Shown here: in pieces, positions 3,230 to 36,590 of the stretch
Numbering within the stretch: the first letter of the stretch is position 1
Layout: every line of letters starts with the position of its first letter
Virus record (IMG/VR): IMGVR_UViG_3300029996_000144
Source: a virus
Strand: one strand, 5' to 3'
Length of the DNA stretch: 36,590 nt
Notes under the pieces: generated by a model
Told to the model about the DNA's origin: nothing
Databases searched by the model: none
What the model saw: the letters and a program-made list of their open reading frames with translations, nothing else
Translations under genes and position numbers: made by a program

Positions 3230-3706
3230 ATGGCACAGAAAGTTATTGCGGCAAGAGACTTTGAGCTCTACCTCACGTTCAACGCAATCGGTACGCCGAT
3301 TAAGATCGGCACCGGTGCGAATTTCAGCTCTGTAATTTCCGGTCAGACCGACGACATCGGCGCGTTCTCTACGGACGAGCCGATCGGGACGGACAACGGA
3401 GGAAACACCTACGATATTTCGTTCTCTATTCAGACGGCCGAGTGGATCACGATCATGGACGCGGTCAGAGCGGCTACCGCGGCTACTGACCATCCGATCG
3501 TGCATATTCGGGACATCGTGGAGAGCTTGACGATCACGGCGGTTTGGAACAAACGCAACGATGTTCCGGCCACGTCGACGACCAAGACCTTCACCAGTTG
3601 TACCGGTGTTGAAGAGAGTGATGATGTCGAACGACGGGGTACGGAAACTCTGCAATCACTCCGTTTCCGCGCCCGAGGAATGGCGGTTGCCACGACGCTG
3701 TTGTAG
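3230..3706 (+). CDS. Putative tail tube protein (P2 FII-like size).
   Basis: 158 aa, 1 nt after the sheath stop, upstream of the chaperone/TMP block. The call rests on synteny and size only. Confidence 0.45.
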   Translation: MAQKVIAARDFELYLTFNAIGTPIKIGTGANFSSVISGQTDDIGAFSTDEPIGTDNGGNTYDISFSIQTAEWITIMDAVRAATAATDHPIVHIRDIVESLTITAVWNKRNDVPATSTTKTFTSCTGVEESDDVERRGTETLQSLRFRARGMAVATTLL

Positions 3707-3771
3707 AGTGCGAGTATCTGGTTCATGGGGTTTGATCGCCCCATGAACCGCTAACCAAAAACAAAACAGGT

Positions 3772-4119
3772 ATGGGAAAAGAGTTGGTATTGCGTAAAGT
3801 TACGCTTAAAAATGTTCTCACACCCACGGGTGAGCGGGACATCGAGGTTCAAGTAGTGCCGTTCGACCGGCGCAAAGACGAGCATACGGATTTTGCGTAT
3901 GCTTACATCGACATGCTGGGGCGCATGCCTTCCGAGTTTCGGAACATGTCGGATGCGTCGAAAGCCTATGTTCGTCAGTTCATGGTGCATAAAGCTGAGG
4001 ACGAGAAAAATCCGGAATCGGACTTCGCGTGTGTTCTGTCGGACACCCGAGCAGCTCGAACACTTCTGAACACTGACGAGACCCAGCAGGAGTTCCACGC
4101 TTTTTTCGAGAACGCCTAA
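3772..4119 (+). CDS. Tail assembly chaperone, zero-frame product (lambda G / P2 E analogue).
   Basis: 115-aa ORF between the tube and the tape measure. Its 3' end overlaps a -1 frame ORF and contains the slippery site T_TTT_TTC. Confidence 0.6.
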   Translation: MGKELVLRKVTLKNVLTPTGERDIEVQVVPFDRRKDEHTDFAYAYIDMLGRMPSEFRNMSDASKAYVRQFMVHKAEDEKNPESDFACVLSDTRAARTLLNTDETQQEFHAFFENA

Positions 4120-4454
4120 CATATCCGATACGTGATATTTTAGGCGTAGAGGAATCGAAGCAGGAAGACGCTAAACGTATCGTTCAGAATCATCTGATTC
4201 TCAAAAGAGCGCAGCAGGAGGACCCTTTGTTCCTTCGACGGGTTTTCGTAGCACACTACTGCAACATTCCGTTCCACTTGCTGATGGATCATACGCTGTA
4301 CCCTCGGACGCTGATCGAAGAGCTCTTCGCGGCATCGATGTACTGGTGCAGAAACTGCGAGTTAGCTCCTTACCAACAGGACAACTTTGACGACAAGTTA
4401 ATCGACGATCTGGAAAATGGCAGGTTACAATATTGTTTTGAATCTGGGCGGTAA
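4077..4454 (+). CDS. -1 frame extension of the tail assembly chaperone (G-T / E+E' analogue). It is expressed only by a frameshift at 4101-4107.
   Basis: Frame 0 is open from 4077 (after the TGA at 4074-4076) to 4454. It overlaps the end of the upstream chaperone ORF and the start of the tape measure gene. Confidence 0.5.
   Translation, partial: RDPAGVPRFFRERLTYPIRDILGVEESKQEDAKRIVQNHLILKRAQQEDPLFLRRVFVAHYCNIPFHLLMDHTLYPRTLIEELFAASMYWCRNCELAPYQQDNFDDKLIDDLENGRLQYCFESGR
4101..4107 (+). promoter_or_regulatory. Programmed -1 ribosomal frameshift slippery heptamer T_TTT_TTC.
   Basis: In the zero frame of ORF 3772..4119 the codons read gcT TTT TTC, 12 nt before its stop. A -1 slip enters ORF 4077..4454. 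Confidence 0.55.
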
Positions 4455-9322: not shown

Positions 9323-10646
9323 ACCCAATACTACGATCGTAGACGTCTCGTTGAACCTATCCGGCTCGATTACGGGCATACCTGCTGCATTGGATCAACT
9401 CCCCGTAGGCGACCGGATAGGCTTCGACGACTTGCCCGACCTCGGCGAGGACGTCGAAGACATCGGGCAGACGTGGACGCCCGATCTGGTGGGCCGGCAG
9501 CTCGACATCGAGTTACCGCTGTACGACACGCTGGGTCAGGAGAAGCAGCCGTACAGCACAAACCTTGTGAAGATGAAGTCTGTCGTCACCGACGGTGAAG
9601 GGTGGGTGCAGCCGATAACCGAGGGCCGTCCGTTCTCGTCGCTCAAAGCAGGCGAGAAGGTCGACTTGCCGCATCTGTCGCTCTTAGGCAGAGGCGACAA
9701 CATGCGTTTTGCCGGAGAGGTCGGCAGAGTATACGGGATCGGCTTCTCGCAAGACAAAAACGACACTTTCATCAACGCTCAACTGTCTTTCGTCTACGTC
9801 GTCTCGTCGGAGGACGGCGACGGCACGCTCCTGATGAACCTGGTGGGCAATGTCATACCCGTTTTCTCACATGTCACAGAGAACGGGGTGACACGGCTCG
9901 TCAAGTGGCTCGAAGCCGCATATATAATGTTTCAGGACCTCTACGTCGTCTTCGACACCACGGGAGCCGTCGAGCCGCCGGCGCCTGCCGAGGCGGGGAA
10001 GTGGAGCTTCGACAATCTGCTCATCGACAACTTAGAGGCGTCCGTTCTGGACGAAAACTGGCAAAGCGCGCCTATCGACTTCGACGCGCCGTCGTGGGAT
10101 GACTTGTACGAGTTCCTGATCCAGTCGACATATCTCAGCTTCGATCTGAAAGGCACGTTCAACGAGCGTCATGTGATCCAGTCGAAAGTAGCTAAGGGTA
10201 CGTTCGATTTTTACGGTATCAACTTCATCGCAGAGGGTTCGGAATATAACTATTCGCAAAGCGACAATGCCATATATGTAACCAATATTCGTGAGGTATA
10301 CCCGGTAGACTATATTCTAAACAACTGGCAGACCGCGGCTAAGCGGATTGTCGGGAAATGGATCAGCCACAAAGGGATTACTGCGTATGACGGTAATATA
10401 AATTTATCGGCCTGGTCAGCAAACAGCTTCACATTCTCTCCTGATCCTGCGAACGCCTATCTGAGGGTCATTTGCCGCTACAAGTTCAATCTGAACAAGT
10501 ACCAGGAATCCGCCGAAGCGACGACCGTAGACGGCTACATCCCCAACTCAGTGTACATGTACAACCCCAGTAAAGCGCCCACGCCTGCGGAGGCCACTGT
10601 CAAAATCCGTATGCGTTTCCGGCCCGTTTACGACGAAACCAAATAA
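9312..10646 (+). CDS. Putative baseplate J-like protein (gp6/gpJ family position).
   Basis: 444 aa from the ATG at 9312 (a GTG at 9306 is also possible). It follows the spike/wedge-like genes and precedes the fibre genes. Confidence 0.4.
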   Translation: MKIEPNTTIVDVSLNLSGSITGIPAALDQLPVGDRIGFDDLPDLGEDVEDIGQTWTPDLVGRQLDIELPLYDTLGQEKQPYSTNLVKMKSVVTDGEGWVQPITEGRPFSSLKAGEKVDLPHLSLLGRGDNMRFAGEVGRVYGIGFSQDKNDTFINAQLSFVYVVSSEDGDGTLLMNLVGNVIPVFSHVTENGVTRLVKWLEAAYIMFQDLYVVFDTTGAVEPPAPAEAGKWSFDNLLIDNLEASVLDENWQSAPIDFDAPSWDDLYEFLIQSTYLSFDLKGTFNERHVIQSKVAKGTFDFYGINFIAEGSEYNYSQSDNAIYVTNIREVYPVDYILNNWQTAAKRIVGKWISHKGITAYDGNINLSAWSANSFTFSPDPANAYLRVICRYKFNLNKYQESAEATTVDGYIPNSVYMYNPSKAPTPAEATVKIRMRFRPVYDETK

Positions 10647-10649
10647 GCT

Positions 10650-11051
10650 ATGCGTTACTTCACACTCAAAGAGCTTACACACTCCGATACGGCTCTCCGA
10701 CTGGGCCTCGACAACACACCTGGCGTGACCGCGTCCGTCAACCTGATCTACCTCGTGGAGAGGCTGCTGGACCCGATCCGAGAGAGGTACGGGGCCCCGA
10801 TCATCGTCATCTCGGGCTACCGAAGCCCCGCGGTGAACGAGGCCGTGGGCGGCGTGGCTACGTCGCAGCATCTGCGCGGCGAGGCGGCCGACATCAGCGC
10901 CGGCGCCGTCACGCTGAACAAGCAGCTCTTCGAACTGATCCGTACCTCGGGTTTGGAGTTCGACCAGCTGATCGACGAGAAAAATTACCAATGGGTTCAC
11001 GTATCGCTTACCTCCCGTGGTACGAACCGTAACCAAGTATTACACTTATGA
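10650..11051 (+). CDS. Peptidase M15 (VanY / L-Ala-D-Glu endopeptidase-like) cell-wall hydrolase; candidate endolysin or tail-associated lysin.
   Basis: SGYRSPAVNE ... SQHLRGEAADI matches the zinc-binding SxHxxGxAxD signature of M15 phage endopeptidases (T5 Lys / Ply500 type). Confidence 0.7.
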   Translation: MRYFTLKELTHSDTALRLGLDNTPGVTASVNLIYLVERLLDPIRERYGAPIIVISGYRSPAVNEAVGGVATSQHLRGEAADISAGAVTLNKQLFELIRTSGLEFDQLIDEKNYQWVHVSLTSRGTNRNQVLHL

Positions 11052-11845
11052 GCGCAGTCGACACTATCCAAAAGGCATTGAAGCTTCTGATCCCGTCGCT
11101 CGACTATACGAACGCATCGATCGAGAAAAAGATCATCGACGTGGTAGGCAGCTATGCCGACACTGAGGCTATCGAGCGGCAAAATACGCTCGCTACGATC
11201 CAGACGGCCTTAGCGCAGCAGAAGGTCACGGGCATCGAGTACTACCGCCGCCGCGCTGTCGCGTACCAAGAGGGCGACGAGCTCCTGATCGATCCGGTAA
11301 GTCAGGCGGGCTACTACGCCACGGTAGACGAGGAGGCGCAGATCATCAAGCAGGCTTACATCGTCGGGCTGTACCCGCAGTACACGCTGCTCGTGAACGT
11401 CATCGGCGACGACGGTCACTTAGCGGCGCTAAGTGAATCGCAGCTTGCGTCTTTCAAGACGTACTTCACGGCGTACCAGCCCATCGGTCTCGACCTCAAC
11501 ATCCTGTCGCTGCCGGTAGCTCAGATCACGGACCCAGGTATCGTGATCTACGTCAGCAAAGGTACGGACGCTGCGGAGGCCGTCGCTACGATCCAACAGA
11601 ACCTCACGGCTCACGAACAAGTGCTTCGTAAGAACAACGTCGTATCGCTGACTGAAATCGAAGACGTCATACAACAATTCTCGCAGGTGCAGGCAGTAGG
11701 CTTCTCGGACATCGTAGCGACCGAGACGAGCTTGTCGGGCGAGCAGGTTACGGTGAGGCCTATGAACGGGATATTCAATCTTACGAACGGAGCTTTCACC
11801 TTCGCTACGCAGCTCACGACGTCGAACATTAAAGTGCTGGGGTGA
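11048..11845 (+). CDS. Tail/baseplate protein (gpI-like position).
   Basis: 265 aa, ATGA overlap with the peptidase gene. Positional call. Confidence 0.35.
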   Translation: MSAVDTIQKALKLLIPSLDYTNASIEKKIIDVVGSYADTEAIERQNTLATIQTALAQQKVTGIEYYRRRAVAYQEGDELLIDPVSQAGYYATVDEEAQIIKQAYIVGLYPQYTLLVNVIGDDGHLAALSESQLASFKTYFTAYQPIGLDLNILSLPVAQITDPGIVIYVSKGTDAAEAVATIQQNLTAHEQVLRKNNVVSLTEIEDVIQQFSQVQAVGFSDIVATETSLSGEQVTVRPMNGIFNLTNGAFTFATQLTTSNIKVLG

Positions 11846-12345
11846 TGTTCCGCTATATAGACATGCCGAAGCTGGTCGCGTACTACCTGCGCGAGTTCTC
11901 GTACCGGAGGGACGGCACGACGTCTACTCTGTACCAGTTCGTGTTCAGCTTATGCCTGCCATTCGTGTCCAAGCAATTCCGCTCGGCGCGTCTGGCGGCA
12001 TTGGCCATTGCCGAGTGTACGAACAGCGCAGACCAGATCAAGCGGCTGTTCGACAAGCTGATGGGTGGCGACGCGAAGCTCACGATCCTGTCGCATAACA
12101 ACGACTTCCTGCTCTCATGGGACGGCACGGGGGCGGAGCCGCTGTTCCCGTTCGACGGCAGCGCGGCGACGAACGATCCGCAAGTACCTTACTCACCGTC
12201 GCCTAACTTGGTCGACTTGACGGTAACGATCCCGAGTATCTACGACGACGCGAAGTTCGAGAGCGTGAAGCAGACGGCCGCGGCCTATTTGCAGCTTCTG
12301 ATACCGTTCTACATCCAAACCAATATTAACTACATAAAAGCATAG
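11845..12345 (+). CDS. Hypothetical tail protein.
   Basis: 166 aa, TGATG overlap with the upstream gene. Confidence 0.35.
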   Translation: MFRYIDMPKLVAYYLREFSYRRDGTTSTLYQFVFSLCLPFVSKQFRSARLAALAIAECTNSADQIKRLFDKLMGGDAKLTILSHNNDFLLSWDGTGAEPLFPFDGSAATNDPQVPYSPSPNLVDLTVTIPSIYDDAKFESVKQTAAAYLQLLIPFYIQTNINYIKA

Positions 12346-12349
12346 CAGC

Positions 12350-13306
12350 ATGGCAAATTTCCTTACACTCAACTCGGCGAACCCCGCGCTGAAACGCCCG
12401 CTGCGGGTATCCGATTTGCAGAACATCTACGACGCGATCAAAGCCGTCGTCCCACAGTCCAGCCTCACACCTAAAATTCTCTGGGGTATGAGCCTCGATG
12501 ACGACGGCTTCATCCAAGCCGGTGCCGTGTCCTTCAAAGGTGAGGTGTACACATGGGACCCCGTAGCGCAGAACGATCAGCTTCAAATCGGGGACGCGAT
12601 CTACGCTGCGAAAATTGCCTCGGGCGACGTCCGAACGATGGAGGGAGGTACGCAGCAGGAGTTTTCCTACAAAAACATCCTTACCTCAAAAGCTTCCGGA
12701 GAACAGCTCTCCGGAAACGTGTCGCTCGAAGACATCACGGAGTGGCAGATGCCGTACATTCCGGCTTTGGGGATCACTAATGATATGATCGCGCCCAACA
12801 CCATTACGAACAGTGAAATCGCGCATGGCACGATCTCTCAGATCACCTTATCGAAGGAACTCGCACCTTGTAGGCTGGTCCAGTCCCGCCAGTACAACAT
12901 TACTGCGGAAATAACGAATATAAGCCTCGATGCTATTTGCACATGGCAGAACACCGGATATTGGAGGTCTTCGATGCTTATGGTCGCAACGGCGCTCAAC
13001 CAAGCACCTACGATCAACATCGTCGGTGCTTTCGAAGGCAACATAGCTCCGAATGAAGTTAAAGTCATAATTCACTCGGCAGGGCTTCCCACGACGGGCG
13101 CAACGATCGGCTTCGTCAGCTACCGGCCTCAAAGAACCACCGATTCTGACCAGACACGCAAAGTCACGAAGACAGTGACGTTCACTAAGCCTAACAACGA
13201 GTCAGTTGTAGCAACTTTCTCCAAGACCGACCCACCGATCACTCCGTCGAGTCCGTCGGTAGCATTGTACACACTCACCTCTCTCGTCACCTTTTTAGCT
13301 GAATAG
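12350..13306 (+). CDS. Putative tail fibre / receptor-binding protein.
   Basis: 318 aa, Ser/Thr/Asn-rich, last large gene of the tail module. Confidence 0.35.
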   Translation: MANFLTLNSANPALKRPLRVSDLQNIYDAIKAVVPQSSLTPKILWGMSLDDDGFIQAGAVSFKGEVYTWDPVAQNDQLQIGDAIYAAKIASGDVRTMEGGTQQEFSYKNILTSKASGEQLSGNVSLEDITEWQMPYIPALGITNDMIAPNTITNSEIAHGTISQITLSKELAPCRLVQSRQYNITAEITNISLDAICTWQNTGYWRSSMLMVATALNQAPTINIVGAFEGNIAPNEVKVIIHSAGLPTTGATIGFVSYRPQRTTDSDQTRKVTKTVTFTKPNNESVVATFSKTDPPITPSSPSVALYTLTSLVTFLAE

Positions 13307-13307
13307 T

Positions 13308-13793
13308 ATGAAACCGTTTTTCATTTACAGTCGCTACCTCCCGTTCGGGAAGTTCGACTACCTGACCTTCCTCGTCTGGGTCATCATCAAGAAGCAGTAC
13401 AATCCGGCGACCGGCGTATGGGAGCGCCCCGTCATGTCCGATTGGGCTGTGAGGCATGAGACGTGGCATGTATGGCAGCAGTGCTGCCTGTTCGTGTTAG
13501 GTGTGGTTTGCGCGATAGCCTCCGCCGCGACGTTCGCATTGGCCGGTGTCCCGATCCCGTGGTGGGTATGGGTGACACCTGTCGTGGCGCCGTATGCCGT
13601 CTATGCCGTCTGTTGGTTCGTAGAGCTCCTGCTCCCGCCCTACGATAGCGCATACCGTGACGTCTGCTTCGAGAGCGAGGCGCAGTACCATGAGTACGAC
13701 GAGAACCCGCAATACTGCCCGTTCTCGTTCCTGCGGTTCATACCGAATAAGGATTGGAGGGCGCTGGGCCGAGAACGGTTCAAGAAGCAGTGA
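13308..13793 (+). CDS. Three-TM membrane protein; candidate holin.
   Basis: Three hydrophobic segments (LTFLVWVII; CLFVLGVVCAIASAATFALAGV; WWVWVTPVVAPYAVYAVCWFVELLL). It is the last gene of the late arm. Confidence 0.3.
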   Translation: MKPFFIYSRYLPFGKFDYLTFLVWVIIKKQYNPATGVWERPVMSDWAVRHETWHVWQQCCLFVLGVVCAIASAATFALAGVPIPWWVWVTPVVAPYAVYAVCWFVELLLPPYDSAYRDVCFESEAQYHEYDENPQYCPFSFLRFIPNKDWRALGRERFKKQ

Positions 13794-13825
13794 ATACGAG
13801 GGGCTTTCAAAGCCCCTCGTATTCA
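13791..13825. terminator. Bidirectional hairpin terminator between convergent late (+) and early (-) arms.
   Basis: Perfect 17-bp inverted repeat tgaatacgaggggcttt / aaagcccctcgtattca with a 1-nt centre. The stop codons of both convergent genes lie inside the stem. Confidence 0.6.
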
Positions 13826-14751
13826 TTTATCGTTTCGAAAATCCGCAGCGCCACCTGCGGGACTATCGCGTTGCCGTAAGCTTTGATCGATCCTTTGCGC
13901 CATGCCGGAAAGGTAATTCCGTCCAGTCCGGCGGAAAGCCCATCATCTGGGCCACATATCGGGGATTCAGTCGGAAACCCTTCCCAATTCGAGACGGATG
14001 CGAAATCATGACGTCGTGGACGACTCTGCTCTTCCGCTTGGCTTGACTGGGTGGAAGATTGGAATTTATAGCATCGTTGACCGTCGGCGTCGACAACAGC
14101 CCCATCCGCGCTGCAAGCGCGAGCGTCGGCCGAGCAGTCGCACCCTTCGACAGGCTCTTGTTCACACGCCCGCTCCCGCAATCCAACGCGACCGGTGTCG
14201 GCAGTAGAGCCGGCGGCAATGGCTCCGAATCGCTCTTGCCATGAACTTTCAGCCCTTGCGTCACCACGGTGGGCAACAAACCATGTTCTGTATCGCAGGT
14301 GGGGGGCACCGACGCCCGCAGCTGGTATAAGGTACGCTTGCACCTCGTATCCCGCCGCTTCCAAATCAGCACACACCTGCTCGAAAACCATTCCCTGCGA
14401 CCAATTAACGATTCCGAGAACATTCTCGCCCACGACCCAGCGCGGTCGAACAGTCCGAACAACTCCGAGCATTGCGGGCCAGAGGTAGCGGTCGTCGGCC
14501 GTACCCTTGCGTTTGCCCGCGAGGCTGAACGGCTGGCACGGGAACCCGCCGGTGAGCACGTCGACGCGATCTCTCCAAACGGTAAAGTCAGTTGTTTTGA
14601 TGTCTCCATATTGTTCCGATTCGGGAAAATGATACTTCAATACGCGCCGGCAGAACGGGTCGATCTCGCAGTTGAAGACGTTCGTCCAGCCGGCCCACGC
14701 GGCCGCCAGGTCGAAGCCGCCGATGCCGCTGAATAGAGAACCGTGCGTCAT
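13807..14751 (-). CDS. DNA (cytosine-5)-methyltransferase, orphan.
   Basis: Motif I FSGIGG, motif IV GFPCQPFS, motif VI ENV, motif X AYGNAIVP. No adjacent endonuclease. Start MTHGSLF at 14751 overlaps the upstream stop (TAATG). Confidence 0.85.
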   Translation of the reverse strand: MTHGSLFSGIGGFDLAAAWAGWTNVFNCEIDPFCRRVLKYHFPESEQYGDIKTTDFTVWRDRVDVLTGGFPCQPFSLAGKRKGTADDRYLWPAMLGVVRTVRPRWVVGENVLGIVNWSQGMVFEQVCADLEAAGYEVQAYLIPAAGVGAPHLRYRTWFVAHRGDARAESSWQERFGAIAAGSTADTGRVGLRERACEQEPVEGCDCSADARACSADGAVVDADGQRCYKFQSSTQSSQAEEQSRPRRHDFASVSNWEGFPTESPICGPDDGLSAGLDGITFPAWRKGSIKAYGNAIVPQVALRIFETINEYEGL

Positions 14752-15344
14752 TAGTACTCCACCGCTGCCCTGCGATCGATGAAGAAATGAATACCCGGTG
14801 CGCATTCGCTCCACCTGTAATCGTCGAAATCCGGAACTTCAACTGTGGCACCGACGGTGTAGACGAAGTTTTTGTCATGGTCGGAACGAACGGTATCCTC
14901 AGTTGCCTTGGTGCCGTCCATGTTCTGAATCTCCATGACGTATGCTTTATCGCAACGGCATTTGTGTCCCGTTGCCGAACTGCGCCGTGCATCTTCCGGA
15001 ATTCGTAATTTTACGATATGCCCAGAGGCTTTTTTCCAACCGATGAAACTACCCTCAGTCGGACATGATAGATAACATCCCTTGGCATCGCGCAGGTCGG
15101 CACCGCACAGGTCGGCACCGCACAGGTTGGCACCGCACAGGTTGGCACCGCGCAGGTTGGCACCGCGCAGGTCGGCACCGCGCAGGTTGGCACCGCGCAG
15201 GTCGGTATCGCGCAGGTCAGCACCGCGCCTAATAGCTTCCAAAACCGTTTCGGTGATTGTGTTTCCCTCTTTCGTGTATTCAAATACGACCGAGCCAGTC
15301 CAACGGTTGCGGATTTCGATTTTAATCTGTTTCGTTGATTCCAT
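14751..15344 (-). CDS. Pentapeptide-repeat protein (8-9 A(D/N)LxG units) with a Cys/His-rich C-terminal domain.
   Basis: [45 protein letters not shown], then C..C..H..H.C.C. Translationally coupled to the methyltransferase gene. Confidence 0.75.
15093..15227. repeat. 9 x 15-bp tandem repeat (caggtYggcaccgcR) encoding the pentapeptide repeats.
   Basis: Direct reading: near-identical 15-mers head-to-tail inside CDS 14751..15344. Confidence 0.9.
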
Positions 15345-17393: not shown

Positions 17394-17718
17394 TTTCAGT
17401 AATATAAGTGCGATAACCTTTATAAAAAATGTCGTAGTAGTTATAAATCCTCGTGTCCAAGACGTAGGTCTCGAACCCTAATTCTTTGAGCCGCCGATGA
17501 AAAGCGATCTGCGCCTCGGTGCAGCGCTCACCTGTGGTCTTCGTCTCGACGAAGATCGCACGTCCGCGCAGCATAACGAGGTAGTCAGGTACGCCGCGCT
17601 GTGTCAGCGGGTGGTTTTTCATCGCCAGGCCGCCTTGTTCGCGTACCGCTTCCCGCATACAGCGAGCGACATAGTGCTCGCTGTACACTGTCTTCTGGTT
17701 AACTCCCTTCTTATACAT
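17377..17718 (-). CDS. VRR-NUC domain nuclease (PD-(D/E)xK).
   Basis: GVPDYLVML ... IFVETKTTGERCTEAQI matches the VRR-NUC core. Confidence 0.7.
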   Translation of the reverse strand: MYKKGVNQKTVYSEHYVARCMREAVREQGGLAMKNHPLTQRGVPDYLVMLRGRAIFVETKTTGERCTEAQIAFHRRLKELGFETYVLDTRIYNYYDIFYKGYRTYITENEKAE

Positions 17719-18178
17719 AGTCGGATTCTTTTAAACTGAGGTTAGATAAAATACTTCTTTTTCGTATAGCATAAACTGTGGGCACTGAGAGTTCAACACG
17801 CTTCGCGATCTCCGCAGGCGTCAATGTGGTGCGGGTGAGAAGCGCGTCGGCCGCGACCATTCGAAGATGCCGCATCGCATACGGCATAACAATGCCCCAA
17901 TACTCCGGATACGGGTAGAACTCGTTCAGCATCTGTACCACCTGCATATTCTCCGGCGTCTTCGGCAGCGGCTTAATCCCGTAAAACGCAGCCTTCAAGA
18001 TTCTGTAATTCAGCTCGTCAGGAAACATGTCGATAAGGGTCTGTAAGTCCTTACGCTGACAAAACCGCTGCGTGAACCACGCAAGATACGGGCGCCGTCC
18101 GAGCCGAAACATCTGCTCGAAAAGCCACTTCGGGCAGCCTGTATGTGCTAAATGCTCAAAAATCAAATCCTTTACCAT
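17711..18178 (-). CDS. HTH regulator with a sigma-70 region-4-like C-terminus.
   Basis: C-terminal LTPAEIAKRVELSVPTVYAIRKR. Start taken at MVKDL (18178), just after the primase stop. Confidence 0.5.
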   Translation of the reverse strand: MVKDLIFEHLAHTGCPKWLFEQMFRLGRRPYLAWFTQRFCQRKDLQTLIDMFPDELNYRILKAAFYGIKPLPKTPENMQVVQMLNEFYPYPEYWGIVMPYAMRHLRMVAADALLTRTTLTPAEIAKRVELSVPTVYAIRKRSILSNLSLKESDYV

Positions 18179-18180
18179 TT

Positions 18181-20505
18181 CTATTCCTCCTTGATGTCGT
18201 CTCTTCTTTTCCAACATAGCATAACTCCGTATTGTGAGAACCGGCGCTTTTGTGTCGTCATTTCAAACATGCAGGTGCGCCGTATTGCCTCTGCAACTTT
18301 TCGACCGAGCGACGGCGACATATCCTTTCGCTCGTATTCGTAGAACTCACGAGCCACCTCGCTCGTGCAGATGTACTTCCGCGGCGTACCTGACCACAGC
18401 GCGCGATCGTTGTTCCAATACTGCCGGCGCTCGAAGATGCTGCGGTTGTCCCAGTCGTCCGGCACCGGCATGTTCAGGTATTCGACCAGCGACCCCTGCT
18501 CCGTGTCTTCGATCCGGTGCGCCTCACGCAGCTGGTTCACCTCACGCTCAGCCTCGGGCGACAGCACCGGCAGCATACCCTCTAAGTAGTAATGCACAGC
18601 TTCGGCCCAGTACTGGTCCACAAGGTCCAAGAAGGTCTCCGAGTGAATGTCGATGCGGATATGCTTCCGTTGACATACCAAGCCCCACCAGCGGCGCCCC
18701 TCTTCGGCCGGATCGTCCAAGAAAATCATGTCGTTTGATGAAGCGATGAACACGCACTGCCGCTTGTATGTCTTCGTATATTTCAGGTATGCGGCGCGGT
18801 ACCGATCCTCGCTTTTGGTGATAAACGCCTTTCGACCATTTGTACTGCGGCTCTGCACGCCTCGAAGCTCGGGGATCTCCATGATCCACACACCGCGGAG
18901 CTGCTCGTAGGCCTCCTTGCCGCCGTTGAACGTATAGAACGTGTCGCTGCCCCAGAGCTTCGCCATGCGGCGGATGAACTTCGACTTGCCTAAACCTTCC
19001 TCCGAGACCAGCACGGGGATATAGTCCATCTTGGCCGCAGGGATGAACACGCGGCGCACGGCTCCGACGAAAAACTTCACACCTACCTCGCGGGAATAGA
19101 GCGTATCCGGTACGCCGAAGCAATCGATGAAAATCCGCTCCAAGCGCTTCCTGCCGTCCCATTTCAGCGAGTTCAGGTAGTCGCGCACCGGATGAAAGGC
19201 GTTCCGGCTCTCGACGATGTTCAGCGCATCGTCCAGCACGGCACGGGCATTGAACCCGTAGGCCTCCTCGAAGTAGAGCCGCAGATAGCTCTCGTCCGTG
19301 TCGGTCATCTCGGCGTTCACCTCCAAATTCTTGCAGTCTTCGCTGTTGGGCCGTACATCGAAATTGCGCCAGAAGGGCGGCTTGCGCAAGACCGGCATCT
19401 CGGAGAACTGGTCGTATGCGAACACGCCGCGGAGCTTCGGGTCGTAGGTTAAAATGAGCTGCGCGTTTTTCAACGAGGGGAGCAGGTTGCCGTGTTTGTC
19501 GAGCTCCAACCGTTCGTTAAGAATCGCCTTAACGTCGTCATCGTCCATCTCGTCGATCGTCGCTCTGTGCGCCATACCTTCGTCGGGGCGGATGCCCAGC
19601 GATTCGCAGAGCTGAGCCATCGCCGCTTCGCCCTTCTTGCCCTCGCCGAACTTGTATAGCCGCACTGCATCGTATGCGTTGTGGCATCGTCCCAAGTACG
19701 GATCGGACGCATGATTCGAATAGAGGTATAAATTCTCGTAGATCACACCTCCGCCGAACGTCGAGGCGCCTACCAGTGTGTAGCGGCCATTCTTAGCCGG
19801 CTCCCATATCCCCTGCAAATACGTTTCGATAGCCTCACGGATAGGTACGCGCTTGCAGAAAGCTCCGATAATCCCGCGTTTCGTTAACGGGTTCTGCACC
19901 ATCACTTTCATCGGGACTGGGACGTCCGACAAATCTCGCCAGTCGTCGGGCCGGTTCAGCAGCTCCGAGACGCACAGCTCCGAGCCAGTCTGCGCTTCGA
20001 AAAAGTAGTCCGCGTCCTTCGGCACCGATGGCAGAAACATGATCCGGTTGAAGTCGAAGGTAGCGATGTCCAGCGGCAAGTGGAATTGATCGTAGAGCAC
20101 CCGCATGAGCGCACCGTACTCGTCGGCCACGACGATGCGATCCAGTGGCGCAATGACCCGATAGCGGGGTTTCTCCGGTGTCGAGCTGTGCGTCGAGTGA
20201 ATGAGGTACGAATGCCCGCTGAGCCACGCACGCAGAGCATTCAGAACCTCCGGCGACCCCTCGTCGATGTCCAATGCTATCAACTGTCGAAAACTTACCT
20301 TTCGTTTTACGGCCATACCGCCGATGAAAAACCCGACGTCCTTAATCTCCGTCTTCTGGGCTTTCGACAACTCGGCGTATTGCTTCATTGTCTCTTCGGT
20401 ATGGACGACCCTTCTGAACCGGTCCACGATCTCCTGCCATTCCCACCGGTATGGTGTCGTCGTCGTGTTCGTCCGCTTCGTTCCTAATGCAACTTCAAAA
20501 ACCAT
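18181..20505 (-). CDS. Primase-polymerase (PrimPol) / D5-VirE family SF3 helicase fusion.
   Basis: PrimPol DxD (LIALDIDEG) in the N-terminal part and a P-loop (VSEEGLGKSKF) in the C-terminal part. Start MVFEV at 20505 is adjacent to the polymerase stop. The longer GC-rich N-extension (to 20640) is probably not translated. Confidence 0.75.
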   Translation of the reverse strand: MVFEVALGTKRTNTTTTPYRWEWQEIVDRFRRVVHTEETMKQYAELSKAQKTEIKDVGFFIGGMAVKRKVSFRQLIALDIDEGSPEVLNALRAWLSGHSYLIHSTHSSTPEKPRYRVIAPLDRIVVADEYGALMRVLYDQFHLPLDIATFDFNRIMFLPSVPKDADYFFEAQTGSELCVSELLNRPDDWRDLSDVPVPMKVMVQNPLTKRGIIGAFCKRVPIREAIETYLQGIWEPAKNGRYTLVGASTFGGGVIYENLYLYSNHASDPYLGRCHNAYDAVRLYKFGEGKKGEAAMAQLCESLGIRPDEGMAHRATIDEMDDDDVKAILNERLELDKHGNLLPSLKNAQLILTYDPKLRGVFAYDQFSEMPVLRKPPFWRNFDVRPNSEDCKNLEVNAEMTDTDESYLRLYFEEAYGFNARAVLDDALNIVESRNAFHPVRDYLNSLKWDGRKRLERIFIDCFGVPDTLYSREVGVKFFVGAVRRVFIPAAKMDYIPVLVSEEGLGKSKFIRRMAKLWGSDTFYTFNGGKEAYEQLRGVWIMEIPELRGVQSRSTNGRKAFITKSEDRYRAAYLKYTKTYKRQCVFIASSNDMIFLDDPAEEGRRWWGLVCQRKHIRIDIHSETFLDLVDQYWAEAVHYYLEGMLPVLSPEAEREVNQLREAHRIEDTEQGSLVEYLNMPVPDDWDNRSIFERRQYWNNDRALWSGTPRKYICTSEVAREFYEYERKDMSPSLGRKVAEAIRRTCMFEMTTQKRRFSQYGVMLCWKRRDDIKEE

Positions 20506-27692: not shown

Positions 27693-29361
27693 CGTTTTTC
27701 TTGTTTTATGGCGCCGATAGCCTCGTGCGCCGGTTATTAATACGTTAAAATGCGATATACGTTCATTCAGCTTAAAATCGGGCTTTGCATCTAAGGATCG
27801 GCCCGCTTACGGGTCGAAATGTTTCGTACCCCTTTCCGATGACAAAGATAAAAGAAATTCCCCGCTTGTCAATAGTTTTTTAATCAATTTTCTTTATACT
27901 TTCTGCGGAAAGTATAAGCGAAACGCTTATTTTGTTCTAAATGTCCTATTTTAGCCGCAAACCTTTGATATACGACGCGAAACTGTTCTAAATACCCCCT
28001 AAAAATTTTTCCATCCCGCGCGACACACCTCGATAAGCCTGCCGCAGACCTTCAAAGGCCCCGATCATGCCGGAAAAGCACCCGAAAACGGCCATTTTGT
28101 TCTAAATAGGAACAAGTCACTTCGAGTCAAATAGCTATAAATCAATAGTTTAAGATAAAAATGTTCAAAACGTGAACAAATTTTTGAAAAATCAATAAGG
28201 CATTTAGGACAAAAAGTGCCCGAAAAACAGCGAAAAAATGGTTATAGCAACAAGGATAAGAAACTGAAAATGTGTTTATTACGAATATTTTGTTGCTATG
28301 GGAAAACTTTCCAAAACTTTTTTGGGATGAATTTTCAAAATGATGAATTTTTGACCCCCGAAAATGTTAGGGGTGTATCTGCTCATAGCAACAAACGGCC
28401 TCTAAATCCTTACAGGTCTGTGCGTTAGGTGTGTTGCTATGAATGTTGCTATGAAATCTTCACGAACAACCGTTTTTTGCTAATATGTTGATATTTAGAT
28501 GCTTAGCTTTAAACAGCTTCCAACGAATGTACAAATGCTTGATTATCAAAATGCTAACTTTTAGATATTATTATAAGCTGCTGAGTATCACTGTTTTCTG
28601 TCGGAGTTCCAATTTTGAACATTTTATGCCTCTCCCGGTTCGGTACGACCGGTCTGATCCGAAACAGCGGAGCGCCGGCGCAGAATACAGGCTAAAAGCA
28701 TAGTCGCAGCGGCGCAATGGCTTGATAATGTGGCGGGTATGCGCTGCTTCGCTCTGTCATGGTCTGCGGCGCCCGAATGGCGCAGCGATTCAATGCGCAG
28801 CGATGCAATGGTGCTGGCCTCAGTGCACCTATCCACACGCGCATGCACGGCGGTATTGATCGTGAGACGCTGGGCCGCTGTTCCATTGCTTCGCTGCTTC
28901 TGTTCACAAAATGAACAGTGTTCCACGTGGAGCAATGGGCCGCTGTTCCATTGCTTCGCTGCTTCTGTTCACAAAATGAACAGTGTTCCACGTGGAGCAA
29001 TGGGCCGCTGTTCCATTGCTTCGCTGCTTCTGTTCACAAAATGAACAGTGTTCCACGTGGAGCAATGGGCCACTGCTCCACTGATTCGCTGCTTCTGTTC
29101 ACAAAATGAACAAAACGAAGGTTCAGTAGGTGAATGAAGCAATGAATCAAAGGGGCAATGACGCAAAGGCGCAGCGAGGCAAAGGTAAACAGGCGGCAGG
29201 GGGTCTGGCGCTGACCAGCATCTTTGAGCCATTTTAACTTTGAAAAAATTCGGGATGGAAAAATTCGGGATGGAAAAATTTGAGAAAATTCAGAATTCCG
29301 ACGAAAAGAACATAAAAAAACGACATTTAGAACAATATTCGATGGAAAAACATTTGGCAAG
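27693..29361. promoter_or_regulatory. 1.67-kb AT-rich non-coding control region between the divergent early and late arms; candidate origin/operator/packaging region.
   Basis: No credible ORF. It contains TTGTTCTAAAT(G/A) x4, TGTTCA-N5-TGAACA x5, GTTGCTATG x5, 65-bp tandem repeats and several perfect palindromes. Confidence 0.6.
28871..29120. repeat. About 3.8 x 65-bp tandem repeat. Each unit contains nested inverted repeats (CCATTGCT...AGCAATGG and TGTTCA-caaaa-TGAACA).
   Basis: Unit starts at 28871, 28936, 29001 and 29066. The first three are identical and the fourth is diverged. Confidence 0.9.
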
Positions 29362-29384
29362 TTGGAAAAGTTTTTTTATATTTG
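29353..29384 (+). promoter_or_regulatory. Bacteroidota-type sigma-A promoter candidate: -33 TTTG (29353-56), 20-nt spacer, -7 TATATTTG (29377-84).
   Basis: Exact match to the TTTG / TAnnTTTG consensus, about 15 nt upstream of the ATG at 29399. An inverted TTGTTCTAAATG site lies 20 nt upstream. Confidence 0.4.
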
Positions 29385-29398
29385 GGCAAAAGAATCTA

Positions 29399-29610
29399 TG
29401 AACAAAGTAAAGAAGCGTCTGGATGCTTTGACGTCTCAGATTCTGGCGAACCCCGCTTTGGGTAAGGATGATGCGATCATATCCGAGCTCAGAGGTCTGA
29501 GGGAGCTGTTGCAGACGTGGCGCGCGTTCTATGCGGTGCAGGGGCAGTACAGCGACGATCTTCCGGAGGGCCCTCGGCAGGTGCGGGAGGCGTCCCAGAC
29601 GTGGGATTAA
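29399..29610 (+). CDS. Small protein upstream of the large terminase; possible small terminase subunit or DNA-binding protein.
   Basis: 70 aa from the ATG at 29399 (ORF open from 29362). The stop lies 3 nt before the terminase start. Confidence 0.3.
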
Positions 29611-29613
29611 GGT

Positions 29614-31041
29614 ATGCCGCTTACGACCGCCATAAGTTTAACCGCCAAGCAGAAGGAGGCATTGGAGCTTCTGGATTCACCGACGCAGGACAAGCTCCTG
29701 CTGCTCGGTGGTTCGGGCTCGGGCAAGACGTTCGTTCTTATATATAAGGCAATTCGGGATGCGCTGCGGTTCAAGGCGCCGGTCTTGGTCTGTCGGAACA
29801 TGTTCGTCGATCTGCGGCAGGGTGTGATGGACCAGATCGTGCCGGCAATTTTACAGAAAATTGCTGAGGCGAATGGTCAGGAACGCTGGGACAAGTGGCT
29901 GATCGATGATCTGCGTTTCGCCACGTGGTCCGACCAGCATTCGCGGCTGTCGTTCTGTACGGGCGGCTACCTCCGTTTCGCAGGTCTGTCGAAGCGCGAC
30001 ATTTCGGAGAGCGGGTTGGACAAGCTCCTGTCGCCGTCGTGGCTTCACATTTTGGTTGAAGAGGTGTCGGAGGTCGAGTACCCGCCGGTCGAGATGCTCA
30101 TTACTCGACTGAGGTACAAGGCCGAGGGATGTACGGGCAAGCTGATGATGTCGGAGAACCCGCCGTCGATGATGCACTGGTCCTACCGCCGCTTCTACGA
30201 GGCGAAGCATGAGGACGGGTCGCCGCTGTCGCATGAGGAGAAGCGGCAGCAGGCGTACCTGCTGATGAACCCGCGGGACAATCGGGAGAACCTGTCGGAC
30301 GAGTACATTCGCAACCTTTCGCAGCTAACTGGTGCGAACCGAAAGCGGTTCTACGAGGGGCAGTTCCAAGACAGCGAGACGGGTGAGATATTCAAGCGGA
30401 TCAGCTGGACGGACCGGCTGCCGATGCCGGAGGAGTGGGAGAAGCTAGTGATCTACACGGACCCGACGCCGCTCACGGGCAAGGACTACTCGGTGTACGC
30501 CGACTACAAGGCATCCGTTCTGTGTGGTCTGTGGAATCATCTGACATTTGTCATCGACGTCCGGTTGGTACGGGGGTCGACGCTGGACATGCTTCAAAAT
30601 GTGAAGCAGCTGTGGGACATATCCCCGAACCAGTCGATCACGGAGGTCTGCATGGAGAAAAAGCAGGTGCCGTCGGACTTCAAGCAGGTGCTTGAACAGT
30701 TCACCTATCTGACGGGCTGGTCATGTACGGTGAAGCTGGACACGCGGATATTCGGGGACAAGAAAGCGGCGATCGAAACATTTTTGCAGCCTCTGTTCGA
30801 GAACGACTTGATTCTGTTCAACAGTGCTTTTCGGGACACGGAGCGGGGGCGGCTGACGCAATATCAGGTGTTGAAGTTCTCGCGTAAGGCGAACAAGCGC
30901 ATCCACGACGACGTTTTGGACGCAATCATGCGGGCGGACACGCTGATGAAGGGGCGCAAGGGCCGCAAGCGGCGGTCGAAGCATACGCAGCTGGTTCAGC
31001 TGGTGCGCCCCGGGTACATATTCGACAGCAGGAATGGATAA
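29614..31041 (+). CDS. terL: Terminase large subunit.
   Basis: Walker A LLLGGSGSGKTF, Walker B ILVEEVSE, C-terminal RNaseH-like nuclease acidic residues (IYTDPT, HDDVLDAI). Confidence 0.85.
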   Translation: MPLTTAISLTAKQKEALELLDSPTQDKLLLLGGSGSGKTFVLIYKAIRDALRFKAPVLVCRNMFVDLRQGVMDQIVPAILQKIAEANGQERWDKWLIDDLRFATWSDQHSRLSFCTGGYLRFAGLSKRDISESGLDKLLSPSWLHILVEEVSEVEYPPVEMLITRLRYKAEGCTGKLMMSENPPSMMHWSYRRFYEAKHEDGSPLSHEEKRQQAYLLMNPRDNRENLSDEYIRNLSQLTGANRKRFYEGQFQDSETGEIFKRISWTDRLPMPEEWEKLVIYTDPTPLTGKDYSVYADYKASVLCGLWNHLTFVIDVRLVRGSTLDMLQNVKQLWDISPNQSITEVCMEKKQVPSDFKQVLEQFTYLTGWSCTVKLDTRIFGDKKAAIETFLQPLFENDLILFNSAFRDTERGRLTQYQVLKFSRKANKRIHDDVLDAIMRADTLMKGRKGRKRRSKHTQLVQLVRPGYIFDSRNG

Positions 31042-35899: not shown

Positions 35900-36590
35900 G
35901 AATTTCGAAGAGAAAACAGATGTTGACGACTGGGATCGTCGACTTGAACAACAACCAGATCGATGTAGATGCTATCGACTGGTCGATGTTCGACCGTAAC
36001 CCCGTCCTTCGATACGACCGTAAAAACGAAGGCCACAAGGGTGTCGTCATCGGAAAAGTGATCGAGCGCGAGCGGGTCGGCAACGGGTTCGCTGGACGGC
36101 TGGTGTTCATGGAGCGTTTCGAAGACGCGGACATCGCTTTCGAAAAGTACGATCAAGGCGTCCTGACCTATGTTTCGATCGGTGGGTACGGTCTCGGTCA
36201 GGAGAACGAGGACGGCGTATTCGTCTGCGAGAAGTATGTGCCGCGTGAAGTGTCGCTTGTCGCCTTCCCTGCGAACATGGAGTGCCATCCGATTAACGAG
36301 AGCGAGGTGACGGCTTCGGAGAAGCGGGTCATCGATCAGCTCAAAGTAACCGGATCAGAGGTTCGCTACCTCTCGATGTCTACTGGTATGCCCTACGACA
36401 CGTATATGGGGCAGATCGAGGCGGCAGCTGAGGGTGAAGGCGAACCCGTCGAGGCGGCAGCTGAGGGTGAAGGCGAACCCGTCGAGGCGGCAGCTGAGGG
36501 TGAAGGCGAACCCGTCGAGGCAGCAGCCGAGGGCGAAGGCGAACCCGTCGAGGCAGCAGCTGAGGGTGAAGGCGAACCCGTCGAGGCAGC
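35896..36590 (+). CDS. N-terminal part of the wrap-around ORF: HK97-type prohead protease (peptidase S78) domain followed by an AAAEGEGEPVE repeat linker. It continues at 1..1543.
   Basis: REVSLVAFPANMECHP matches the S78 'E-S-V..PAN' block. GHKGVV and LTYVSIGGYG fit the catalytic His/Ser blocks. No stop before the window end, and the frame is continuous with nt 2 onward. Confidence 0.7.
   Translation, partial: MRISKRKQMLTTGIVDLNNNQIDVDAIDWSMFDRNPVLRYDRKNEGHKGVVIGKVIERERVGNGFAGRLVFMERFEDADIAFEKYDQGVLTYVSIGGYGLGQENEDGVFVCEKYVPREVSLVAFPANMECHPINESEVTASEKRVIDQLKVTGSEVRYLSMSTGMPYDTYMGQIEAAAEGEGEPVEAAAEGEGEPVEAAAEGEGEPVEAAAEGEGEPVEAAAEGEGEPVEA
36421..36590 (+). repeat. Coding 33-bp tandem repeat, 5 units plus a partial unit, contiguous with 1..193 across the circular junction.
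   Basis: Direct reading. Confidence 0.9.
36492..36590. repeat. 99-bp exact duplicate of nt 1-99 (terminal overlap of a circular contig).
   Basis: Character-by-character identity of 36492-36590 with 1-99. Confidence 0.85.

Follow-up and report, generated by a model that had tools for sequence, protein, structure and literature searches.

The segment between positions 27693 and 29361 of the window (the whole analysed stretch of 36,590 nucleotides) is an inter-module spacer of about 1.7 kb, which separates a minus-strand early (replication) module from a plus-strand late (packaging and structural) module. The window represents the 36.6-kb, circularly assembled genome of an Alistipes-type gut phage. 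The lineage is very widespread in metagenomes from the human gut, and 772 blocks of the contig collection list its 70-aa ORF, which some relatives carry as a fusion with TerL. As far as our search reached, no culture or published description of the lineage was found. The features considered below are listed by position, and those marked "new" had been missed in the initial annotation of this DNA.

18181–20505, minus strand: primase-helicase (PriRep-like) of 774 aa, a SaPI Rep homologue and the proposed origin-binding initiator
27693–27842, minus strand: putative 5′ leader of the early operon, running from the promoter to the ATG (27692), with a hairpin at 27798–27817
27843–27872, minus strand: predicted early promoter and candidate driver of the replication operon (−33 TTG at 27870–27872; −7 TATCTTTG at 27843–27850)
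27930–27952: conserved TTTTGTTCTAAATGTCCTATTTT motif, also at 27984–27993 and 28098–28107 and, inverted, at 29325–29334
28097–28115 and 28162–28178: pair of GTTC-N7-GAAC palindromes to the left of the conserved core, with a spacing of 64 bp
28243–28453: candidate origin core, with five GTTGCTATG iterons and A+T-rich spacers, within the conserved block 28150–28460
28608–28624: third GTTC-N7-GAAC palindrome (AGTTCCAATTTTGAACA), an inverted repeat on the right flank of the core (new)
28620–28870: G+C-rich island with forward CGCAGCGA/GCAATGG motifs (motifs new)
28871–29112: 65-bp tandem array of 3.7 copies
29113 to about 29190–29200, plus strand: degenerate 8-nt-phased array (CAAWGRNG, about eight copies; new)
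29186–29232, plus strand: family-conserved single-copy element AAACAGGCGGCAGGGGGTCTGGCGCTGACC (new)
29244–29280, plus strand: AAAAATTCGGGATGG repeat of 2.5 copies, with a degenerate third copy at 29336–29350 (new)
29353–29384, plus strand: predicted late promoter (−33 TTG; −7 TATATTTG at 29377–29384), 14 nt upstream of the ATG at 29398

The spacer had been described as a divergent control region without credible ORFs, and this description holds. No stop-to-stop segment of at least 30 aa is conserved in relatives, and in the closest relative each ORF either is interrupted or has most of its changes at the first two codon positions; without protein-level conservation, and with the ORFs broken or evolving non-synonymously, hidden genes in the spacer were ruled out. 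The region is likewise non-coding in related genomes, and its motifs are invariant in 12 variants of the same lineage. The first late gene is a plus-strand ORF, as proposed, with its start corrected from 29399 to 29398. The motif families reported for the region are real, with counts far above chance and confined to 27693–29361, and the AT-rich stretches correspond to a block at 28100–28620 with 60–80% A+T. Apart from two coding repeats, the spacer is the sole repeat-dense segment of the genome. In comparison with the relative L001, conservation reaches 91% at motif positions and 81% at the remaining positions (p = 0.002). Because the arrays in the region are copy-number-polymorphic, assemblies of the phage often break there. 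No similarity to GenBank phages was found for the spacer, the sole DNA matches in the window being to a pentapeptide-repeat gene, and a scan of the window for tRNA and tmRNA genes found none.

The housekeeping-sigma promoters of Bacteroidota carry a −33 TTTG and a −7 TAnnTTTG element. Full consensus promoters of this kind (TTG-N19/20-TAnnTTTG) occur only twice in the whole window, both heading operons, and they lie at the two edges of the spacer, facing outward. Both promoters, predicted by sequence, match the known type, whereas their use here as a divergent pair 1.5 kb apart sets them apart from it. A sigma-70 scan also picks up the two sites. The early promoter is conserved in 11 of the 12 variants and the late promoter is 100% identical in L001; in L001, the place of the early leader is taken by about 900 bp that include two additional ORFs.

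Within the spacer, the palindrome TTGTTC-N7-GAACAA was confirmed at 28097–28115. The second form, TGTTCA-N5-TGAACA, had been placed at 28163–28178; the palindrome is real, but it begins at 28162. This form occurs five times (28162, 28901, 28966, 29031 and 29096, against 0.06 expected), always inside the region, and its presence once per 65-bp repeat was found as described, in the tandem array at 28871–29112. The two left-flank palindromes are 95–100% conserved with respect to L001 and invariant, with fixed spacing, in the 12 variants, in which the third palindrome is also invariant. Each 65-bp unit combines TGTTCA-N5-TGAACA with TGTTCCACGTGGAGCA and a GCAATGG...CCATTGC inverted repeat, giving three adjacent inverted repeats, and the self-complementarity of the array reaches z = −4.6. 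The copy number of the array varies from 0.7 to 3.7 among the 12 natural variants, and the core of the unit is single-copy in L007 and L011. The enrichment of TGTTC is specific to the phage's own lineage.

The iterons were also recovered, with TGTTGCTATG matching at 0–1 mismatch at 28243 (−), 28291 (+), 28384 (−), 28432 (+) and 28444 (+). A sixth match, with one mismatch, lies outside the region at 12341, giving six matches in total against 1.26 expected. The iterons follow the order −, +, −, +, + with spacers of 38–83 nt, one of them 79% A+T, and do not form two clean opposed sets. The GTTGCTATG set at 28243–28453 is the only non-coding iteron cluster of the genome. Across 11 distinct variants, nucleotide diversity drops to 0.02–0.08 at 28150–28450, compared with 0.10–0.17 in the flanks; an RNA, or a regulatory site with densely packed elements, could also account for the high conservation of 28150–28460. 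The cumulative GC skew has its minimum at 28123, adjoining the iteron set, and its maximum at 10410, with the strand switch 3.4 kb further on, and a pattern with minimum and maximum about half a genome apart was observed in six genomes (the phage and five stitched relatives). Since transcription diverges at the minimum and switches strand near the maximum, the skew is confounded with gene orientation and serves as weak, supporting evidence only.

Relatives carry lineage-specific iterons in the same A+T-rich half, such as three exact copies of GTGGGATATG in L071 and long inverted iteron sets in L007 and L057. Beyond A+T-richness, no universal pentamer or hexamer iteron common to all relatives was found. 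A DnaA-dependent origin was rejected for lack of a DnaA-box cluster, as the region contains one box (TTATCCACA) with one mismatch, and the genome-wide count of seven, against 4.7 expected, shows no enrichment.

The binding protein had previously been sought in a "sigma-like HTH" ORF (17711–18178). This assignment is unsupported: the protein gave only a sub-threshold C-terminal HTH match in Pfam and no match in the PDB or NCBIfam, its single-sequence model was unusable (pLDDT 49), and it is poorly conserved or undetectable in relatives. A better-founded candidate, absent from the initial annotation, is the predicted winged helix of the primase-helicase. In a phmmer search against the PDB, residues 344–694 of this protein matched residues 33–374 of 7PDS_A (SaPI1 Rep1-DNA; E 4.4e-53), and a Pfam VapE-like domain was detected at 4e-60. 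At the N-terminal side, residues 48–335 match the primase family phrog_9765 (DNA primase, 2e-72). The AlphaFold model of the C-terminal domain, built from 86 sequences, shows a helix-helix-strand-strand topology with pLDDT >90 over residues 40–135. The best Foldseek matches of the model are the 7PDS chains (E 3e-5), followed by weak matches (E >0.1) to winged-helix repressors of the MecI/BlaI/BigR type. The winged helix is a prediction that concerns the fold of the domain.

The C-terminal domain alone gave four matches in the homologue search, and the full-length protein was therefore used as the query. Four distant homologues (33–36% identity) were found to have a gap of 235–295 bp directly 3′ of the gene. 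The gaps of L188, L191 and L192 contain 8–10-nt iterons in both orientations, and that of L190 contains a short 8-nt tandem. Downstream of the phage's own gene there is neither a gap nor a repeat cluster, the stop at 18181 abutting or overlapping an ORF that begins at 18178 (or 18217).

According to PMC9371898, SaPI Reps use a C-terminal winged helix to bind 6–12 short iterons, which form two opposed sets on either side of A+T-rich central DNA. The phage protein resembles the Rep/PriRep family of the SaPIs, pathogenicity islands of Staphylococcus aureus, whose members are self-loading helicases of the SF3 type, as a homologous initiator that is primase-fused, like PriRep5, and has a C-terminal winged helix, predicted here. 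The candidate origin shares with SaPI origins the short iterons in both orientations and the A+T-rich DNA, with an iteron sequence that is lineage-specific. However, the SaPI origin lies directly downstream of the initiator gene, whereas the phage's candidate is found 7.5 kb away from it, between the main promoters. SaPI iterons also measure 5–6 nt, whereas those of the phage measure 9–10 nt, number only five and alternate in orientation, an arrangement that is equally loose in the distant homologues. Furthermore, SaPIs are satellites, and what we describe here is a complete phage with a Bacteroidota host. To our knowledge, the palindromes and the polymorphic 65-bp array flanking the candidate origin have no SaPI counterpart.

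A second point of comparison is the satellite phage P4, whose alpha primase-helicase reportedly binds both ori and crr, the latter consisting of two 120-bp repeats. As in P4, a single multifunctional primase-helicase that also binds the origin is proposed for the phage, and a short motif is reused in the origin and in separate long direct repeats, represented here by the 65-bp array of 0.7–3.7 copies. The P4 octamer (TGTTCACC) and the TGTTCAC of the array are alike at 7 of 8 positions, which may be coincidence. The two systems differ in that the TGTTC sites of the phage are palindromic, as for a dimer, whereas the P4 octamers are direct, and in that the phage array lies about 450–750 bp from the core, compared with 4.5 kb in P4.

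The SaPI-Rep-like initiator, the iteron origins of its homologues, the diversity trough and the GC skew make an origin within the region the most likely and best-supported reading, and this half of the earlier proposal of an "origin/operator hub" is supported. We therefore favour, with slightly better than even confidence, a divergent promoter region that encloses a SaPI-type origin between the replication and the packaging/structural modules. Both the start of replication in the region and the pairing of each protein with its motif are points that we infer. In such an arrangement, the two host-type promoters at the edges would fire outward into the early and late modules. The primase-helicase would recognise the five GTTGCTATG iterons with its C-terminal winged helix and open the A+T-rich spacers; after loading itself, it would initiate replication in both directions. 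Flanking the core are two palindromes on its left and a third on its right, and the 65-bp array adds one to four more; they are spaced at 64/65 bp (about six helical turns). We propose them as sites for a dimeric protein of phage or host origin. The bound dimer could build a higher-order or looped complex around the origin, with an accessory or enhancer-like role for which copy number is not critical. The right third of the region, with the 8-nt-phased array, the conserved element and the 15-bp repeats, would be part of the late module and contribute to late-promoter control or act as a terminase recognition site.

The G+C-rich island (28620–28870) is the fastest-evolving portion of the region (71% identical to L001, with indels), and it was observed at the same relative position in 8 of 9 more distant relatives examined (not in L013/L014). 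The phased array produces autocorrelation peaks at lags of 8, 16, 24 and 32 (z = 3.8–4.9) and TRF periods of 8 and 16. At the same position, relatives have exact 8- or 16-bp arrays, the 8-bp ones with 7–11 copies and an inverted set. Because these exact 8-bp arrays also look like Rep iterons, the origin could instead lie in the G+C-rich island. The conserved element consists of AAACAGGCGGC...CGCTGACC at 29186–29216. Its 8-mer core is exact in 10 of 16 loci, and additional lineages have versions that differ by one base; the element shows 100% identity to L001 and gave no consensus secondary structure.

The right third travels with the terminase module, and it may hold a packaging signal. We regard it as possible, if somewhat unlikely, that the island, the 65-bp and 8-nt arrays and the AAACAGGCGGC...CGCTGACC element form a cos/pac site, in which a cleavage-type core is flanked by lineage-specific terminase-binding repeats; this would be compatible with an origin in the left half. 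The element lies 180–210 bp upstream of the small ORF and about 400–430 bp upstream of TerL (29614), and it is the best-conserved nucleotide block among genomes whose TerL is only 65% identical, with adjacent arrays that are lineage-specific and A-runs that follow the element in relatives. In the comparison with L001, the element is inherited together with a late module of 98–100% identity, and the break falls in the 65-bp array. Lambda-type cos sites have the order cosQ-cosN-cosB upstream of the small terminase gene. The phage region resembles them in that a conserved G+C-rich core, flanked by A-tracts and by repeats that differ between lineages, immediately precedes the terminase genes, but its variable arrays lie mainly on the side of the core away from these genes. 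The packaging interpretation is weakened by the lack of a recognisable DNA-binding small terminase subunit, as the upstream 70-aa ORF is helical and has no Pfam, PHROG or NCBIfam match above threshold, and no other candidate was found. In the assemblies analysed, contig ends cluster at the arrays, but these are repeat-induced breaks, one array containing a scaffold N-gap. The break points of full-length contigs vary in position, and three of these contigs are circular overlaps. Given the N-gap and the varied break positions, contig ends were rejected as evidence of genome termini. More distant TerL clades (35–40% identity) have a different upstream architecture without the element, which makes the mosaicism comparison uninformative.

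Purely transcriptional control is in our judgement unlikely. On this view, the palindromes and repeats would be operator or activator sites through which a dimeric HTH regulator sets the timing of early and late expression, and the origin would be located outside the region. Both main promoters lie in the region, and the GTTC-N7-GAAC palindromes have the form of dimer sites. In addition, TGTTCTAAAT, overlooked in the earlier reading and present in four copies in the region, and GGGATGGAAAAA occur upstream of both promoters in mirror orientation. The TTTTGTTCTAAATGTCCTATTTT motif has eight matches at 0–1 mismatch (1.1 expected), including four exact copies that are all in the region. In the L010/L011 lineage, a 23-nt block shows 96% conservation, and the motif does not differ among the variants; the centre of the 29325 copy lies some 62 nt upstream of the predicted late transcription start. 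The AAAAATTCGGGATGG repeat varies from 0 to 5 copies among variants, and its inverted copy (GGGATGG) on the early side, at 28003–28018, is not conserved (56% with respect to L001), which counts against this reading. The palindromes also lie at least 225 bp from either −33 box, the nearest being 28097 (225 bp from the early one) and 29096–29112 (241 bp from the late one), so the operator half of the earlier proposal, at least in its classical form, is not borne out. Profile scans detected no repressor gene, in line with the initial annotation, and no integrase gene or clear regulator was found, the single HTH ORF being poorly conserved in the family. With palindromes away from the promoters and neither repressor nor integrase found, an operator cluster of the lambda OL/OR type was rejected. 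Moreover, a Rep-type initiator needs an iteron origin, for which the genome offers no other candidate.

The preferred origin reading can be extended to a fused replication-packaging hub, in which the SaPI-type origin is coupled to a new class of packaging signal and the palindromes loop both together. We consider this extension quite doubtful. If true, the signal would be a G+C-rich core of about 30 nt (AAACAGGCGGC...CGCTGACC with the A-run), flanked by fast-evolving, copy-number-polymorphic 8-bp-phased arrays, and replication initiation, late transcription and terminase loading would be coordinated from one 1.5-kb nucleoprotein complex.

It is very improbable that the conserved 300-bp core (28150–28460) encodes a structured non-coding RNA. 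No other block in the left 1.3 kb is as conserved as this core, and its self-complementarity is significant (z = −3.8), but its stems are the iterons themselves. Compensatory changes are absent from the 80 predicted pairs, and the single double change that looks paired weakens the stem. A consensus promoter facing into the core is absent, and Rfam covariance models gave no match in the window at gathering score, with only sub-threshold eukaryotic miRNA/snoRNA noise in the region. It is hardly tenable that the phage is a phage-plasmid whose short phased repeats serve as a centromere-like partition site for a protein of the ParR/omega/TubR kind. The exact 7–11-copy 8-bp arrays and inverted set of relatives may resemble heptad or iteron centromeres (pSM19035 omega, tubC), but the phage's own array is degenerate and no ParA/ParM/TubZ-type or ribbon-helix-helix gene was detected among the proteins scanned.

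For the phage family, the preferred reading of a divergent promoter region enclosing a SaPI-type origin suggests a rule and an exception to it: homologous primase-helicases in other phages appear to carry an iteron origin directly 3′ of their gene, and this family seems to have moved its origin to the inter-module spacer. With an origin, an initiator and two main promoters assigned, handles would become available for Alistipes/Rikenellaceae replicons or reporter constructs, and the assigned origin would also be a handle for reading replication activity from metagenome coverage. Together, the origin and its initiator would give access to origin recognition by a SaPI-type self-loading helicase outside Staphylococcus.

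All motifs listed in the initial annotation of the gene-free region (27693–29361) were identified, far above chance and restricted to this region; the features stood as described, with two positions corrected by one (a palindrome at 28162 and the late ATG at 29398). TGTTCA-N5-TGAACA occurs in 5 copies against 0.06 expected, TGTTGCTATG in 5 copies at 0–1 mismatch, and the 65-bp repeat in 3.7 copies, with three adjoining inverted repeats in every unit. GTTC-N7-GAAC palindromes were observed on the flanks of the core (28150–28460) and again in the array at a 64/65-bp spacing. A k-mer cluster scan identified the region as the sole repeat-dense non-coding segment of the genome. The following elements were added to this inventory:

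27850, minus strand: -7 box of the early promoter, heading one operon and facing outward
28608: third GTTC-N7-GAAC palindrome
29113–29200: 8-nt-phased array
29244–29280: 15-bp repeat AAAAATTCGGGATGG, 2.5 copies
29377, plus strand: -7 box of the late promoter, heading one operon and facing outward
Within the region: TGTTCTAAAT, 4 copies
Within the region: CGCAGCGA/GCAATGG motifs

The absence of credible ORFs was borne out, as all 36 stop-to-stop segments with a length of at least 30 aa lacked a protein-level match in relatives. The ORFs of the region are broken in the closest relative, L001; the sole one still open there (28216–28428) changes mostly at codon positions 1 and 2. Rfam and tRNA scans found no known RNA, and alignments of the core and of the conserved element (29186–29232) revealed neither compensatory pairs nor a consensus fold.

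A scan of the whole 36.6 kb with the Bacteroidota consensus (TTG, 17–23 nt, TAnnTTTG) detected exactly two full sites, the early and late promoters, and a generic sigma-70 scan selected the same pair. Since these sole full sites head the two operons and face outward, the proposed divergent control region is supported. The 1.5 kb separating them shows no obvious sign of transcription. The palindromes had been proposed as operators, but the GTTC-N7-GAAC sites are too distant from the promoters for the classical type; they may represent accessory or architectural sites functioning like crr of P4. The “sigma-like HTH” ORF (17711–18178), suggested earlier as a possible binding protein, gave a weak C-terminal HTH signal, a predicted structure too poor for use, and poor conservation. 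Its protein is just 75% identical in L001, compared with 98–100% for both neighbouring genes, and a ~300-bp indel adjoins it; the surroundings look like a patch of local divergence or recombination. Additionally, L001 carries ~900 additional bases with two minus-strand ORFs (its positions 3330–4290) at the point corresponding to 27770/27800 of the window, after the early promoter and ahead of the first early gene, and the first two early genes of the window are just 64–69% identical to their L001 counterparts.

The genome is complete and circularly assembled, its ends meeting within a coding 33-bp repeat. This tandem repeat (36416–36590 plus 1–196) encodes an in-frame acidic linker, (EAAAEGEGEPV)n, connecting an upstream ORF (from ~35893) with a conserved capsid-like ORF (215–1543); the two are probably a single fused protein, and the repeat copy number differs in L001. 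The replication module comprises minus-strand genes from 13.8 to 27.7 kb, including DNA polymerase A, a primase-helicase, a gp2.5/Enc34-type single-strand-binding protein, an SNF2 helicase, and a VRR-NUC nuclease. A C-5 cytosine DNA methyltransferase (13807–14814), mostly missing in the relatives examined, closes the early operon. Within the pentapeptide-repeat/DUF5758 gene (14751–15344), ~145 nt (~15084–15228) are 88–94% identical at the DNA level to pentapeptide-repeat genes from Edwardsiella phages and P22-like phages of Salmonella, which is unexpected in a phage of a Bacteroidota host. The plus-strand genes begin at 29398; a 70-aa ORF comes first, and the genes for the large terminase subunit (TerL, 29614–31041) and a Mu-type portal come next. 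Many relatives (P0003, P0010, P0028, and others) encode a TerL of 590–650 aa whose N-terminus is fused to one or two copies of this helical ORF (29398–29610), while more distant TerL clades have a separate ~118-aa ORF upstream instead.

Relatives of the window carry the label Alistipes/Rikenellaceae, and no similar phage was found when the region was compared with GenBank phages. The comparison covered L001 (81% identical), about 15 loci with TerL 63–68% identical (56% in L069), and 10 more natural variants of the same lineage. The architecture is mostly kept: all relatives possess an ORF-poor stretch of 1.2–2 kb with an A+T-rich promoter zone beside the late genes, and, except in the L013/L014 lineage, an A+T-rich half precedes a G+C-rich island 450–1000 bp upstream of TerL. 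Only three nucleotide blocks are conserved out to the TerL 63–68% relatives, namely TGTTCTAAAT, the palindrome TGTTCCACGTGGA(A/G)CA within the 65-bp unit, and the single-copy AAACAGGCGGC...CGCTGACC element with an A-run after it. Beside this conserved element lie lineage-specific tandem arrays with an 8- or 16-bp phase, such as ACGTATCG x7 with an inverted set and CCGACGGA x11. Contig ends within these arrays were rejected as genome ends and attributed to assembly, since an N-gap interrupts the array in one scaffold and the breakpoints of full-length contigs vary. Conservation of the motifs, named at the outset as a check, was confirmed: all 12 same-lineage variants keep the palindromes, the GTTGCTATG and TGTTCTAAAT sites, and the conserved element, with copy numbers of 0.7 to 3.7 for the 65-bp unit and 0 to 5 for the 15-bp repeat. 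Nucleotide diversity among them falls to 0.02–0.08 at 28150–28450, compared with 0.10–0.17 on either side. Against L001, the A+T-rich half is conserved at 91% of motif positions and 81% elsewhere (p = 0.002).

The primase-helicase (18181–20505; 774 aa from its likely start) is tripartite, with a match to a phage primase family at the N-terminus; the centre matches the SaPI1 Rep1-DNA complex structure 7PDS (E 4.4e-53), and the last ~100 residues form a confident winged helix in a model built on 86 homologues, for which 7PDS is the best structural match, with winged-helix repressors weakly behind. SaPI Reps are self-loading SF3 helicases doubling as initiators. Through a C-terminal winged helix they read 6–12 short iterons, which lie immediately downstream of rep in two opposed sets with an A+T-rich centre between them, and PriRep5 is a natural fusion of a primase with Rep (PMC9371898). 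Four distant homologues (33–36% identity) from unrelated temperate phages were checked, and all four have a gap of 235–295 bp directly after the gene:

L188: TGACTACCAA, 6 copies, both orientations
L191: GTGAGCCAC, ~9 copies, both orientations
L192: CTCCAATA, ~6 copies, both orientations
L190: short 8-nt tandem only

Downstream of the window's gene no repeats were found and the next ORF abuts directly; a SaPI-type origin must therefore be elsewhere, leaving the region as the sole candidate. The replication cassette (DUF2800/PDDEXK nuclease, Enc34-type SSB, DNA polymerase A, VapE primase-helicase, SNF2 helicase) is shared with temperate phages (L188, L189, L190) that have integrases and different terminases, and thus travels as a unit between very different phages.

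Within the region, the GTTGCTATG set (28243–28453) appears to best fit the iteron pattern of the homologues. It comprises five copies of 9–10 nt in both orientations, with one tandem pair and spacers including a 79% A+T stretch, and falls in the diversity trough. The same half contains a distinct 9–10-nt iteron, GTGGGATATG, in L071 (right, right, left); in L007 and L057 it contains long inverted sets of iterons. Cumulative GC skew has its minimum at 28123 and its maximum at 10410; the two are 48% of the circle apart, and the maximum precedes the gene strand change by 3.4 kb. Five stitched complete relatives also have the minimum in the non-coding region, with the maximum 0.51–0.54 genome lengths off and 0.3–2 kb ahead of the strand switch. 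This pattern agrees with bidirectional replication from the region but counts as supporting evidence only, since transcription diverges where the minimum lies. The skew turns negative ~3.4 kb short of the late-gene end (10410–13800), which would be consistent with termination of replication near 10.4 kb, across the circle from the proposed origin. The region is a divergent promoter spacer in which, with moderate confidence, a SaPI-type origin dependent on the primase-helicase most likely lies. The initial interpretation is partly supported: it stands for the control region and for the origin as the likeliest reading, and is not supported for the classical operators.

The right third is 100% identical in L001, compared with only ~80% for the left part, and was therefore inherited along with the late module. 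A packaging signal adjoining the candidate origin is a tentative reading, compatible with the origin: the conserved core beside variable flanking arrays resembles the lambdoid cosN/cosB logic, although neither genome ends nor a DNA-binding small terminase subunit is in evidence. The exact 8-bp arrays of the relatives could also be the Rep iterons themselves, in which case the origin of those lineages would lie within the G+C-rich island. The region is of interest as its lineage is abundant and the origin, promoter, and packaging assignments are open to direct test.
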